Positions 1,342 to 3,925 are shown, counted from the first letter of the stretch. The stretch is DNA of 64,000 bases from an uncultured Erysipelotrichaceae bacterium (GCA_902789225.1 CADANC010000001.1:201438-265437), one strand, 5' to 3'. Notes: generated by a model not told the origin, from the sequence alone. A program made the numbers and translations.

Positions 1342-1436
1342 AAAATGTGATATATTTTATTCAAGTAATTGAGTCAATCTCAATTCATAGATTTGTGCCG
1401 ATTTTTCGCAAACACGTTAAATCATGGCCCCATTTA
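1342..1436 (+). repeat. sRNA-like repeat copy A (extended -10 TGaTATATT, ~95-nt body, own terminators)
   Basis: Near-identical to 3357-3448, and its 3' two-thirds to 3795-3855. Followed by terminator hairpins at 1444-1467 and 1473-1502. Confidence 0.6.
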
Positions 1437-1443
1437 TGATAGT

Positions 1444-1467
1444 ACTAGTCTTTTAGACTAGTTTTTT
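1444..1467 (+). terminator. Intrinsic terminator of repeat copy A
   Basis: actagtc-tttta-gactagt stem followed by a T6 run. Confidence 0.55.
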
Positions 1468-1472
1468 CATGT

Positions 1473-1502
1473 AAAAAGAATAGCTTTTGCTATTCTTTTT
1501 TT
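1473..1502. terminator. Bidirectional terminator (A-run, hairpin, T-run)
   Basis: aaaaagaatagc-tttt-gctattcttttttt. It lies between the plus-strand units and the minus-strand gene ending at 1501. Confidence 0.55.
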
Positions 1503-1830
1503 AATCTTCTTTCAAATATCCTGCAGCTTCATCAATGAAACTCATAATATTATACTTTTTCGTCTCATCAGGATATTTATCTGCTAATTTATATAGTTCG
1601 TCTACGAATTCTCTTGATGGACAAATTTCAATAATTTCTCTAAATATTTCACTAAGCCAAACAAATTCTTCAGAAGTACATTCGTTTTTAAGATATTTTA
1701 TCGTTTCATTAATATCTTCAGTTACAATTTCAACTTCCTTTTTCCATAGTTCTTCATGCTTATAGCTATCATTAATATCCATAGAATTTAGTTCTAGTAT
1801 AATATTTTTAAATTTTTCTTTAAAACTCAT
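1501..1830 (-). CDS. Candidate immunity protein for the adjacent EndoU-like toxin (small acidic cytoplasmic protein)
   Basis: 109 aa with no signal peptide. Its start overlaps the toxin stop by 4 nt (ATGA). The call rests on position; the protein is not recognised by sequence. Confidence 0.45.
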   Translation of the reverse strand: MSFKEKFKNIILELNSMDINDSYKHEELWKKEVEIVTEDINETIKYLKNECTSEEFVWLSEIFREIIEICPSREFVDELYKLADKYPDETKKYNIMSFIDEAAGYLKED

Positions 1831-2318
1831 TTTATTTTCCTCCTTATTGCTTTAGATTGATCAGAGTCTGGAAAAACTGTTCCTATTTTACCATTAGTCT
1901 TTATAACCCCAACTCTAACTCCTTTATAATTTCCATATATAATTTCACCGCTTTTAGATTTTCTATTACTTTTAAGCCCGGCTACATGTTCTCCAGCACG
2001 TCTAATATCTTTCTCAGACCAAGTTTTTGGAAACCAAGCTTGATTAATCCCCTGACGTTTAGTTTTATCTTTGTGATTAGGTATATTACCAACTCTAACA
2101 CCATTAATGTACGTTTTAACAACATTATACTCTATGTTGTATTTATTTAAAAGTTGTAATCCCTTTTCTCCATGTCCACCACTTTTCAAACGTATTTTAT
2201 CATTCCTTCGTGTTGGTTTTGTAAATGCTCCTTCGCTAGAATGAACCAATGCATAATCACTAACAGTTCTTGCACTTCCTTTAGTATTTAAATATCTTCC
2301 TATTTTAGTTGTTCCCAT
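1827..2318 (-). CDS. Stand-alone EndoU-family RNase toxin domain (polymorphic-toxin C-terminal-domain-like)
   Basis: The start is taken at the internal ATG at 2318 (MGTTKIG...), 4 nt after the upstream stop and 7-8 nt after the SD aagaggag. The tracked ORF extends further to 2420. Motifs SGGHGEKGLQLL, AWFPKTWSEKDIRRAGEHV and GKIGTVFP resemble bacterial EndoU toxin domains as I recall them. Confidence 0.5.
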   Translation of the reverse strand: MGTTKIGRYLNTKGSARTVSDYALVHSSEGAFTKPTRRNDKIRLKSGGHGEKGLQLLNKYNIEYNVVKTYINGVRVGNIPNHKDKTKRQGINQAWFPKTWSEKDIRRAGEHVAGLKSNRKSKSGEIIYGNYKGVRVGVIKTNGKIGTVFPDSDQSKAIRRKIK

Positions 2319-2322
2319 GATG

Positions 2323-2988
2323 TTATCTCCTCTTTTGTGTTGTCCAATCATCGAATTGGATAAAATTAGTTTTTTCTTTGAACTCATCAAAAACAACTGA
2401 TGGCATAGATCCATATACAATTACACATCTTGGTTCTATTTCATCTAACATTACGCGTAGTCCATCTCGCAAATAATGTTTTTCTTCCTTACCTTGATTG
2501 CAGCCATAAGTTCCTATAGCTACAATACTATGTTTAGGAATTCCTAAAAAAGCAAATTTTTCAGGTAACACAGATGTGGTATAACTTCTTTCATCTCCCC
2601 ATCTACAATTAGGTATTACATTTACACCGTGTTCTTGAAAATAATGAGCTAAAGCTCTGCTTTTATATACATTACCTATTTGAACAATTAAAGGACTATC
2701 TATATAAACAGAATTATCTAAAGATATTATTCCTTTAAATTTTTTGAATTCTTCAATGTAAGCATCAGGATTTACTAATACATCTCCAAATTCCAAAACA
2801 TTTTCATAAAAAACTATATACTCATCATAATTAGTACTTTTATTCCTTTGACTAAAAGGAATAACTTTTGTTGGTAATGGTGGATTAGTATCCTTAACTA
2901 TTGGAATTTCTAACTCACCATCAAAAAAAGCAGTTTCTACCAATTCAGGATTAAATCCATCATCTATTTTAGTTTTTATCTTTGCCAT
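2323..2988 (-). CDS. Hypothetical protein (possibly DUF4417-like), first gene of a three-gene operon
   Basis: 221-aa ORF. Its stop is 4 nt before the toxin start codon. The domain assignment is from memory only. Confidence 0.4.
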   Translation of the reverse strand: MAKIKTKIDDGFNPELVETAFFDGELEIPIVKDTNPPLPTKVIPFSQRNKSTNYDEYIVFYENVLEFGDVLVNPDAYIEEFKKFKGIISLDNSVYIDSPLIVQIGNVYKSRALAHYFQEHGVNVIPNCRWGDERSYTTSVLPEKFAFLGIPKHSIVAIGTYGCNQGKEEKHYLRDGLRVMLDEIEPRCVIVYGSMPSVVFDEFKEKTNFIQFDDWTTQKRR

Positions 2989-3070
2989 TTAAACATCTCC
3001 TATTCTTTATTATTTAATAGGAGTACCTACAAAATAACAATTTAAATACACTAACCTCCTTTCCTAATAA

Positions 3071-3105
3071 AACTTGACTAATGTATTTACTTATGCTATT
3101 ATAAA
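3071..3105 (+). promoter_or_regulatory. Candidate sigma-A promoter (TTGACT-17-TATTAT) with no downstream ORF
   Basis: Consensus-like hexamers with 17-nt spacing. The downstream terminator at 3232-3262 defines an ~150-nt ORF-less unit. Confidence 0.3.
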
Positions 3106-3231
3106 CGACATTGACACAGCAATAATTTTGCTGTATCATAAAAATATAGAATAAAATAGCAAGTGTTCCTAAAAGCATTTTCAAATTTTATTCTTGTATT
3201 GTTATATTATAATAGGTACTACCTATTATGA

Positions 3232-3262
3232 GGGAAAGTCATGTTGGCGCATGACTTTTTAT
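3232..3262 (+). terminator. Intrinsic terminator
   Basis: agtcatg-ttggcg-catgact hairpin followed by tttttattttt. Confidence 0.45.
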
Positions 3263-3356
3263 TTTTCCCTCTTAGTACATCTTAACATAGATTTCTATAA
3301 TTGTCTAATTATTAGAGCAAAAAACTAAACATATTTTCGACGTTTGCATTTTTCTT

Positions 3357-3448
3357 AAAATGTGATATATTTTACTCAAGCAATTGAGTCAATCAGGGCT
3401 CATAGATTTGTACCGATTTTTCGCAAACACGTTAAATCATGGCCCCAT
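3357..3448 (+). repeat. sRNA-like repeat copy B
   Basis: Over 90% identical to copy A by eye, including the extended -10 element. Followed by the hairpin aaagaaacttgaagaaagttt and a T8 run at 3457-3484. Confidence 0.6.
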
Positions 3449-3595
3449 TAGGAATATAAAAGAAACTTGAAGAAAGTTTTTTTTATGTTATTATATATGT
3501 AGCAAGAAATCTTGCAAAAAATAAAAATGGGAACATTCAGTTTCGCTAGTTGAATGTCTACCCAAATATTTAGCTAGACATTTAATCTATTAAGA

Positions 3596-3694
3596 TTAGA
3601 TGCCTTTTTTTATTACTATAATCAAAATGATTAAAAGGAATAAAATGATAGAGATGAGCTTTAAAACTTTTATGATAAAAGTTTTAGTTTTCAT
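3596..3694 (-). CDS. 32-aa hydrophobic peptide (type I toxin-like, Fst/Ldr-style): MKTKTFIIKVLKLISIILFLLIILIIVIKKGI
   Basis: Manual translation. A strong SD (aaaggaggt) lies 8 nt upstream. It has a single TM helix with charged termini. Plus-strand hairpins and a T-run converge on it and overlap its 3' end. Confidence 0.35.
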   Translation of the reverse strand: MKTKTFIIKVLKLISIILFLLIILIIVIKKGI

Positions 3695-3794
3695 TTTATC
3701 AAACCTCCTTTCTTCTAGAAGATAAGAAGGTAGACATCCAACAACTAAATGTTCCTAATTGCAATATAACATTAGCTCTAGTAAAAATCAGAGA

Positions 3795-3855
3795 CAATCT
3801 CAATTCATAGATTTGTGCTGATTTTTCGTAAACACGTTAAACCATATCCCCATTT
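3795..3855 (+). repeat. sRNA-like repeat copy C (5'-truncated; lacks the promoter part)
   Basis: Matches the 3' 65 nt of copies A and B. It is followed by the same pair of hairpins as copy A (3864-3887 and 3892-3925). Confidence 0.55.
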
Positions 3856-3891
3856 GATTTACAACTAGTCGAAATACTAGTTTTTTTCATA

Positions 3892-3925
3892 CAAAAAAGG
3901 AATAGTTATATACTATTCCTTTTCA
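3892..3925. terminator. Bidirectional terminator (also terminates mgtC)
   Basis: aaaaaaggaatagt-tatat-actattccttttc. Confidence 0.5.

Follow-up and report, generated by a model that had tools for sequence, protein, structure and literature searches.

What is a non-coding sequence of little more than one hundred nucleotides doing three times, on the same strand, at a single locus of an uncultured Erysipelotrichaceae bacterium? The question is raised by a stretch of 64,000 nucleotides (GCA_902789225.1 CADANC010000001.1:201438-265437), called the window hereafter and numbered from its first letter, in which an original prediction had seen a family of candidate small RNA (sRNA) genes. The element, which we name EL, is a previously undescribed element of ~105-140 bp, and the hosts of its arrays are a clade of uncultured low-GC rumen and gut Bacilli. 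On balance, we think it likely that EL is the 3'-end module of small, horizontally exchanged cassettes, which are stacked head-to-tail between tRNA-His and a core block of chromosomal genes (mgtC/glmS). The original prediction did not see what matters most, namely that the copies form the conserved right-hand ends of cassettes that are exchanged horizontally behind tRNA-His.

In the window, repeat finding delimited EL as a family of three plus-strand copies, at 1328-1434, at 3343-3449 (89% identity) and at 3748-3854 (64%, full length). A 37-nt core is exact at 1385-1421, 3400-3436 and 3805-3841 only, where shuffled sequences lead one to expect 0.00 occurrences, and no further copy was found there by a covariance model and nhmmer. 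The claim of three plus-strand copies within 2.6 kb was thus borne out, chance accounting for 0.00 of them. The borders first proposed for the units had to be corrected, to ~1328-1432, 3343-3447 and 3789-3852, with the terminators outside the conserved unit; CCCCA closes all three bodies, which end at 1432, 3447 and 3852. The parts of the copies are the following.

1328..1432, plus strand: EL copy A, covariance-model score 102 bits
1348-1349 (TG) and 1351-1356 (TATATT): extended -10 element of the copy A promoter, predicted transcription start ~1363
1368-1384: first hairpin (P1) of the copy A body
1385-1421: invariant core of copy A
1397-1429: second hairpin (P2) of copy A
1426-1432: 3' end of copy A, GGCCCCA
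1444-1462, followed by a T run: terminator of copy A, an ACTAGT hairpin (terminator scan, folding)
3343..3447, plus strand: EL copy B, 3' module of cassette 2, covariance-model score 79.9 bits
3344-3349 (-35, TTGCAT), a 16-nt spacer, 3363-3364 (TG), a, and 3366-3371 (-10, TATATT): copy B promoter, predicted start ~3378
3400-3436 and 3441-3447: core and GGCCCCA of the copy B body
~3458-3488: terminator of copy B, a weak AT-rich hairpin (terminator fold)
~3789..3852 (start ~3789-3795), plus strand: EL copy C, 3' module of cassette 3, covariance-model score 77.5 bits

The extended -10 element that had been noticed in copies A and B is correct (TG-a-TATATT at 1348-1356 and 3363-3371), the promoter scan listing that of copy B at 3343-3371 with its TG, and intrinsic terminators are present behind both copies. 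Copy A folds with z = -5.1 when the terminator is included and with z = -2.15 when it is left out. Copy C is 5'-truncated, as had been said: its promoter and the 5' arm of P1 are gone, it is richer in substitutions (GCTG, CCATATCCCCA) and its fold has z = -0.5. At the place of copy C, another locus of the family (L016; loci are cited by such numbers) has ~100 nt more, with the promoter and the 5' part. The same two hairpins do follow copies A and C, as homologous pairs (ACTAGT..., AAAAAG(G)AATAG...; behind copy C at 3864-3887 and 3895-3924), and the copies do converge on minus-strand genes, namely the 109-aa immunity-like open reading frame (ORF), the 32-aa peptide gene and mgtC. Finally, the sequence had not been recognised, and no Rfam family matches it: the Rfam 15 gathering scan of the window returned only glmS and two tRNAs, and a permissive scan of 1200-4100 (E up to 10) matched none of the three copies. 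Similarly, four sequence fragments of EL were looked for in the searchable literature and occur in no paper there.

Cassette borders and arrays behind tRNA-His

A genome scan with a 22-nt core pattern, using one genome per species, gave 33 loci with 41 exact-core EL copies, nearly all of them in metagenome-assembled genomes (MAGs) of uncultured rumen or gut Bacilli ("Erysipelotrichaceae", "Bacilli bacterium RGIG..."). Another 57 contigs came from a metagenome scan whose pattern was anchored differently. The covariance model, built from the first of these sets, counts 125 EL copies in 91 sources and ~30 species. A genome has few copies, which lie close together on a single strand (five within 9 kb in L052, the highest number), and a contig of 291 kb holds one cluster. 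Many metagenome contigs stop inside EL, as would be expected if the repeat breaks assemblies. Viral contigs, phage and plasmid records contained no EL beyond a 42-nt AT-rich match, and a phage or plasmid origin was rejected on these searches.

Where a cassette begins and ends was read from alignments between loci. When the window is compared with L011, L050 and L053, identity is ~50% upstream and 75-80% in the tRNA, rises to 100% from 419 to ~1400-1420, inside copy A, and is random thereafter. The tRNA-His genes of these loci differ at ~20-25% of positions up to GCCCCA, and the flanks are unrelated. Similarly, the block around the EndoU toxin gene which the window shares with L005 and L008 stops at the 3' end of copy B, at ~3447. 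Each cassette homology block opens with the base that immediately follows CCCCA, whether this belongs to tRNA-His or to an EL, and closes either within the cassette's own EL or where that EL ends.

Furthermore, the same cassette is found behind either kind of anchor. The DUF4300 cassette stands behind the tRNA in the window, L011 and L050 and behind an EL in L013 and L054; the EndoU operon follows tRNA-His in L005 and an EL in L088; the start of a toxin-antitoxin module is found behind seven tRNA-His variants and more than 25 ELs. The starts of a cassette with a 3-hydroxyacyl-CoA-dehydrogenase-like (3HCDH) gene and of a unit with a TACGATAGC terminator also follow either tRNA-His or EL. For 18 of the 23 tRNA-His genes, the downstream sequence elsewhere follows an EL, and five classes of cassette start are seen, all joined right after CCCCA.

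Variants of the P1 loop and of the 3' segment of EL occur in all four combinations (30, 25, 12 and 12 copies), and the right borders fall inside the core; these findings suggest that homologous recombination is frequent within EL, by which cassettes could be added, deleted or swapped. At the left junction, that with tRNA-His, homology cannot be involved, because only GCCCCA is common to both sequences.

The arrays have a constant architecture. In all 26 loci that hold tRNA-His, this gene lies upstream of the ELs and in the same orientation, and all ELs are co-oriented in the 24 multi-copy loci. Between tRNA-His and the mgtC/HD/glmS/AAA block, ELs alternate with units of one to three genes in either orientation. 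The cargo comprises the DUF4300 lipoprotein, the operon of DUF4417, EndoU toxin and immunity genes, type I toxin-antitoxin-like modules, the 3HCDH gene, SieB, HlyIII, Fic and NERD proteins, and InlB-repeat and Ig-like surface proteins; recurrent neighbours of the arrays are DUF5662, CotJB/catalase, mgtC and glmS. Nucleotide identity between loci has a median of 66-76% for the core genes (glmS, AAA, mgtC, HD), against 96% for 3HCDH, 99.4% for DUF4300 and 93% for EL. The cassettes are far more alike than the core genes and have therefore moved recently between diverged species.

A 3HCDH-plus-EL cassette (~29% GC) also occurs within contigs of 40-48% GC that are binned as Saccharibacteria/Nanosyncoccus (L022 1-320, L026 1680-4480). 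In L022 it lies directly upstream of tRNA-Gly, and in L026 it adjoins a XerC/D-like tyrosine recombinase. This placement reflects either transfer across phyla or chimeric assembly or binning.

The window itself is laid out as tRNA-His, then terminator, DUF4300 gene and copy A, then hairpins, EndoU operon and copy B, then terminator, toxin-antitoxin module and the 5'-deleted copy C, and at last hairpins and mgtC.

343..418, plus strand: tRNA-His (GUG), ending in GCCCCA (ARAGORN and Rfam), anchor of the cassette array
419..1432, plus strand: cassette 1, with the tRNA terminator hairpin (~429-452), the DUF4300 lipoprotein gene (491-1327; Pfam DUF4300, E = 8e-50) and EL copy A as 3' module
1433..1500: linker and two hairpins, left end of cassette 2 (terminator scan, folding)
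1473-1500: AAAAAGAATAGC hairpin, bidirectional terminator of the convergent 109-aa gene
1501..2988, minus strand: cargo of cassette 2, made of the three genes that follow
1501-1830, minus strand: 109-aa immunity-like protein
1827-2321 (or to 2420, with an upstream start), minus strand: EndoU-family nuclease toxin (EndoU_bacteria, 9e-17)
2323-2988, minus strand: DUF4417 protein (Pfam DUF4417, 1e-43)
3448..3788: cargo of cassette 3, a type I toxin-antitoxin-like module
~3498-3612, plus strand: putative RNA with the promoter TTGAAG-16-TGtTATTAT at 3467-3494, overlapping the 3' end of the peptide gene
3596-3694, minus strand: gene of a 32-aa hydrophobic peptide, MKTKTFIIKVLKLISIILFLLIILIIVIKKGI, with a promoter at ~3745-3790 on the minus strand
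3923..4636, minus strand: mgtC (Pfam MgtC, 2e-35), first gene of the chromosomal flank that closes the array

The order of this flank is conserved (mgtC, a 187-aa protein, an HD protein, glmS, an AAA protein) and syntenic in L002, L029 and other loci, at a nucleotide identity of only 63-87%. An ordinary glmS ribozyme (7592-7742, minus strand, 68.7 bits) upstream of glmS (5811-7568) confirms a Firmicutes-type genome.

The EndoU cassette is a mosaic with respect to L005: the DUF4417 gene and its upstream region are ~95% identical and the toxin/immunity part ~72-85%, the lower value being that expected of a polymorphic toxin/immunity pair. The 5' region of the DUF4417 operon (3074-3275) contains two strong promoter-like sites on the plus strand, TTGACT-17-TGnTATTAT at 3074-3102 and TTGACA-17-TATCAT at 3111-3139, a long hairpin with a T run at 3233-3260, and a weak, sub-threshold RatA-like Rfam match on the minus strand (3200-3274, 29 bits, E = 0.39). 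This region may encode another antisense or leader RNA.

More than 30 occurrences of the module of cassette 3 are seen behind ELs or tRNA-His; it shares 80-100% identity with the module of L016 and stands in tandem in many loci, L010 having three ELs and two modules. The 5' untranslated region (UTR) of the peptide mRNA (GGAACATTTAGTTGTTGGATGTCTACC) is complementary to its own 3' UTR. The assignment of the module to type I toxin-antitoxin systems is inferred from its architecture only. Toxin promoters lie in or beside a degenerate EL-like stretch, GTGTCAATCGAACATACATAGTTTTGTCATATTTTTCAACA (window 3745-3800, L010 2900-2990, L016 760-870); their -35 hexamer, TTGACA, is the reverse complement of the P1-loop region of EL, and copy C of the window is a well-preserved counterpart of this remnant.

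EL as a probable transcription unit

The conserved unit runs from the -35 region to GGCCCCA. The commonest form of the promoter is (C)ATTTGCAAATG-TCAWAATGTTGTGnTATATT, that is TTGCAA-17-TGnTATATT. Of the 111 copies with enough upstream sequence, 104 have TATATT where it is expected, 97 have TGn, and 74 have a -35 hexamer with at least 4/6 matches. The distance is fixed behind at least three unrelated classes of upstream sequence. EL has, as expected of an sRNA gene, its own sigma-70-type promoter at a fixed distance from the body, copy C of the window being without it. The -35 region of the commonest form lies within a perfect 12-nt palindrome, CATTTGCAAATG (for example L001 3525-3540; partial in the window at 3343-3350), which could be the operator of a regulator. 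In L013 (1190-1320), the same promoter as that of copy A (TGATTTTGATTTTTCTAAAAATGTGATATATT) precedes an unrelated body of ~65 nt with a GCCCCA end and a terminator; no other copy of this second body type was found in 90 loci.

At the other end, CCCCA is followed by 10-15 variable bases and then by a hairpin with a T run, which is seen behind 39 of 41 copies; by a strict script it is found behind 98 of 113, the remainder mostly having weak AT-rich hairpins. The terminator of an EL is supplied by the start of the next cassette, and at least six non-homologous families of hairpins occupy the same position. Intrinsic termination has two exceptions: since the EL of L022, which has no terminator, runs into tRNA-Gly and that of L026 into a long ORF, the EL promoter can also drive downstream sequence.

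Between promoter and terminator, the body (~70 nt) folds into P1 (AAUUGAG/CUCAAUU), an invariant single-stranded linker, UUCAUAGAUUUGU, P2 (GCC-GAUUU..CG-loop-CG..AAAUY..GGC) and a free CCCA tail. In register, 95% of cells are paired; sliding the partners lowers this value to 20-50%. The variation is mostly A-to-G or C-to-U and leaves U-G and G-U pairs, so that pairing is retained only in the plus-strand RNA. Seven copies that were found by the model alone are also conserved across the core.

No reading frame is conserved, copies differing by indels of 1 and 2 nt (L003, L010, L019, L025). A small protein gene was rejected on account of these frame-breaking indels and of ORFs that start with TTG, have no ribosome-binding site and stop at places that shift between variants. 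A 5' leader or riboswitch of the downstream gene was rejected as well, as the downstream genes are equally often on the other strand and vary between loci.

Taken together, the promoter fixed behind unrelated sequences, the terminator, the wobble-compatible substitutions and the decay of promoter-less copies suggest that complete copies such as A and B would very probably be transcribed into an RNA of ~100-110 nt and that copies without a promoter, such as C, would decay. Promoter-less copies have lower scores (77.5 bits for copy C and 77.3 for L007, against ~100 for complete copies), and degenerate EL remnants lie upstream of toxin promoters. That this RNA would have a function of its own is speculative, and we would sooner doubt it than expect it; it might be a stable RNA like a tRNA acceptor minihelix with CCA, or a trans-acting regulator using the linker or loop. 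To our own eye, the modelled P2 with its CCCA tail resembles a tRNA acceptor/T minihelix with the discriminator C of tRNA-His and CCA. Otherwise, the promoter/terminator pair might mainly insulate neighbouring cassettes transcriptionally.

RNA targets were searched in 64 kb of the genome. No complement of the linker or of the loop was found in the window outside the copies. EL was rejected as a trans-antitoxin for the adjacent peptide module, since its duplexes with the toxin mRNA and with the antisense RNA were no better than those of shuffled sequences (z from -1.0 to +1.4). EL does not overlap the peptide gene, and the antisense position is held by the other plus-strand RNA (~3498-3612). 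It was also rejected as a regulator of mgtC, the peptide or the toxin operon, whose start regions score average; the highest-ranking of the 64 start regions, at -30.2, falls among the values obtained with shuffled sequence (mean -28.6).

An EL that is simply a multicopy gene for a trans-acting regulatory sRNA, pairing through the linker, the loop or the C-rich 3' tail, and whose place between the cassettes is incidental or due to co-duplication with its neighbours, is unlikely. Such an sRNA would account for the promoter and terminator layout kept across unrelated flanks, the non-coding nature of EL, the plus-strand wobble-compatible substitutions, the persistence of an invariant 40-nt core in the seven copies that the search patterns had not selected, and the greater degeneracy of promoter-less copies. 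It leaves unexplained the identity blocks which start exactly after CCCCA and end in EL, and the travelling of EL with cassettes that are 96-100% identical between genomes ~72% identical; moreover, no complementary target was found in the window, the toxin-antitoxin RNAs or the start regions of mgtC and the peptide gene.

As for the original prediction, regulation of the neighbouring mgtC, peptide and toxin genes finds no support: the predicted duplexes are no better than shuffled ones, and the neighbours vary among genomes. Of the alternative it offered for EL, small regulatory RNAs or a species-specific repeat, the non-coding layout of a small transcription unit stands; the restriction to one species does not, as ~30 species carry EL. 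Nor does EL look like the widespread repeat devoid of a conserved promoter against which the prediction had been set, since in every contig the copies are clustered at the tRNA-His locus and the promoter is kept.

Proposed movement of the cassettes and alternative readings

At the DNA level, the best-supported function of EL is that of cassette border and recombination substrate. EL would quite probably supply the homology, carried along with each cassette, through which arrays acquire, lose and reshuffle cassettes, the crossovers taking place inside the invariant core, since EL copies are mosaic. On the other side, cassettes would be joined at the GC-rich GCCCCA common to EL and to the 3' end of tRNA-His, for which two routes may be envisaged. 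In the first, DNA that has been taken up would be anchored by EL homology and joined illegitimately at this microhomology, which is rare in a genome of ~27% GC. In the second, the joining would be due to an unlinked site-specific enzyme, a candidate recombinase.

No tyrosine recombinase was found by phmmer, with two seeds, in the window or in 88 of the 91 loci; the exceptions, where one lies near EL, are L026 and L038/L087, and an integrase beside the array was rejected for all but these. In L027 (~2160-2180, minus strand), the end of an EL runs directly into an end of the tRNA-His type, 5 nt being duplicated (TTGAGGCCCC-GCCCCAGTTTAAATAC), which looks like a scar of imprecise joining. This imprecision and the lack of a recombinase lean towards illegitimate joining at microhomology, without settling the matter.

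The second route has a stronger form, in which a dedicated site-specific system recombines at EL, which plays the role of an integron attC. An unlinked integrase or HUH-type enzyme would read the inverted repeat of P2, GATTTTTCG-N6-CGTTAAATC, and cut at or beside GCCCCA; we regard this as improbable. It would also be somewhat surprising if, as the same proposal has it, circular cassettes were inserted at the 3' end of tRNA-His or at any resident EL, the transcript being a by-product, a guide or a cofactor. The proposal accords well with a left junction that is base-precise after CCCCA beside at least seven tRNA-His variants and many ELs, with the strict co-orientation and the single anchor site, with a P2 that, as read from the sequence, is like a 9-bp inverted repeat with a 6-bp spacer, with cargo typical of cassette arrays (toxin-antitoxin modules, toxins, defence and surface proteins), and with the tyrosine recombinases near EL in L026 and L038/L087. 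It is at odds with the recombinase-free window and 88 of 91 loci, with right borders of the common blocks that lie within the EL core at no fixed point, with the free reassortment of EL variants, as homologous recombination predicts, with the imprecise junction of L027, and with cassette left ends that have no conserved motif.

If the proposal is pressed further, EL would belong to a new integron-like system of cassette capture, with a transcribed mini-gene as the equivalent of attC in Firmicutes-like bacteria, which we likewise hold to be doubtful. The product of EL, or a hairpin with GCCCCA mimicking the 3' end of tRNA-His, might then direct an unlinked recombinase, and circular cassettes might be inserted precisely at the 3' end of tRNA-His or at any resident EL. 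Were this true, rumen bacteria and even Saccharibacteria would draw on a common pool of toxin, defence and surface-protein cassettes.

Several observations weigh against EL as the transcribed 3' module of exchanged cassettes. First, promoter-like matches in this AT-rich region number 17, against 16.8 in shuffled sequences; as they are just as frequent in shuffles, the case for the promoter is carried by the comparison between loci alone. Double changes affect four pairs only, and the covariation score is no better than that of shuffles (221/500). The selection of sequences by an exact core inflates the apparent invariance of this core, and the conservation of EL may reflect recent spread and not selection on an RNA. 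No target of an EL RNA was found in the 64-kb window, the toxin-antitoxin RNAs and the start regions. The sources are mostly MAGs and short metagenome contigs, so that copy number and location in the genome are inferred from fragments. Finally, one imprecise junction was seen, that of L027 (GAGGCCCC-GCCCCAG).

The first two of these points, the equal frequency of promoter-like hexamers in shuffled sequence and the weak covariation, also speak for a passive intergenic repeat (REP/BOX/MITE-like) whose promoter and terminator features are accidents of AT-rich sequence, as does the frequent breaking of metagenome contigs at EL, which would occur at any repeat. Such a repeat is nevertheless very improbable: copies are few and clustered at the tRNA-His locus, the three of the window all lying within 2.6 kb of its 64 kb; no terminal inverted repeats or target duplications are visible; TGn and TATATT stand at a fixed distance behind three unrelated upstream sequences, and at least six different terminators at the same position.

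A remnant of tRNA-His (a pseudo-tRNA or the partial-tRNA att repeat of islands) is largely refuted and the least credible reading, for although EL is always beside tRNA-His, has the GCCCCA 3' end in common with it, often together with the GTTTAAAA that comes next, and locally resembles its anticodon arm (TAGATTTGTGCC vs TAGTTTGTGGC), their global alignment stays at the level of shuffled sequence (matched by 324/2000 and 916/2000 shuffled ELs, and by 1456/2000 without the 3' end), ARAGORN and the Rfam tRNA model make no call on EL, no integrase was found in the window or in 88 of the 91 loci, and the 6-7 nt in common are far below the partial-tRNA repeats of tRNA-targeting islands (10.1101/2020.12.28.424599).

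Comparison with known systems

EL is more interesting than a local sRNA family, and its interpretation as a regulatory sRNA is only partly supported. If EL marks exchanged cassettes as we propose, the region behind tRNA-His is a hot spot in a widespread clade of uncultured rumen bacteria, and species with a core identity of only ~72% swap tiny cassettes there, among whose cargo are polymorphic toxins, toxin-antitoxin modules, Fic and NERD proteins, surface proteins and a dehydrogenase. This would be an integron-like solution without a linked integrase, in a lineage from which we know of no integrons, and it raises the question of whether the EL transcript is part of the swapping mechanism. EL is also a sequence tag for finding such arrays in metagenomes, and it explains the assembly breaks at this locus.

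Multicopy sRNA families of Firmicutes, such as the tandem LhrC copies of Listeria, consist of RNAs of ~100 nt with their own promoter and a Rho-independent terminator, encoded by near-identical copies close together. EL is like them in its size, its promoter/terminator layout and its clustered copies, and its C-rich single-stranded stretch could pair with a Shine-Dalgarno sequence. Unlike them, EL is tied to the borders of mobile cassettes and moves between species, and it is known here from sequence only.

Integron attC arrays, including the integrase-less CALINs, are like the EL arrays in that cassettes of one to few genes each carry one conserved 3' site of ~60-140 bp. Both also have a single anchor, co-oriented sites, a cassette pool that crosses species, cargo of toxin-antitoxin, accessory and defence genes, and a border at the end of the preceding site. 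EL differs from attC in that it forms two separate hairpins and no long imperfect palindrome, and the GTTAAAT of EL, a match to GTTRRRY, is separated by 11 nt from the border, which follows CCCCA further downstream. Furthermore, no IntI-type integrase is near EL, and the genes of EL arrays lie in both orientations with their own promoters. The anchor of EL arrays is a tRNA 3' end, EL looks like a transcribed gene, and its copies recombine within the core, all of which is unlike integrons.

The tycheposons of Prochlorococcus (10.1101/2020.12.28.424599) form, as the EL arrays do, a hypervariable island beside a tRNA gene, in which newer units push older ones inward; some units consist of cargo only, and cargo is common to diverged genomes (10.1101/2020.12.28.424599). 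Unlike the EL units, tycheposons carry tyrosine recombinases and partial-tRNA repeats (10.1101/2020.12.28.424599). EL shares only GCCCCA with the tRNA, its units measure 0.4-2 kb, and no integrase accompanies them.

In the NIME/dRS3 arrays of neisseriae (PMC1797815), intergenic repeats flank small, variable sets of genes at syntenic positions and array length is dynamic, as for EL. Unlike EL, NIMEs are 20-bp inverted repeats that flank many unrelated RS families at hundreds of sites per genome (PMC1797815), whereas EL is a single family of ~120 bp at one locus, has both a promoter and a terminator, and meets the 3' end of tRNA-His at a junction precise to the base. NIME arrays and minimal mobile elements have been proposed to promote exchange with exogenous DNA (PMC1797815), and this proposal is the closest published idea to the movement of the EL cassettes.

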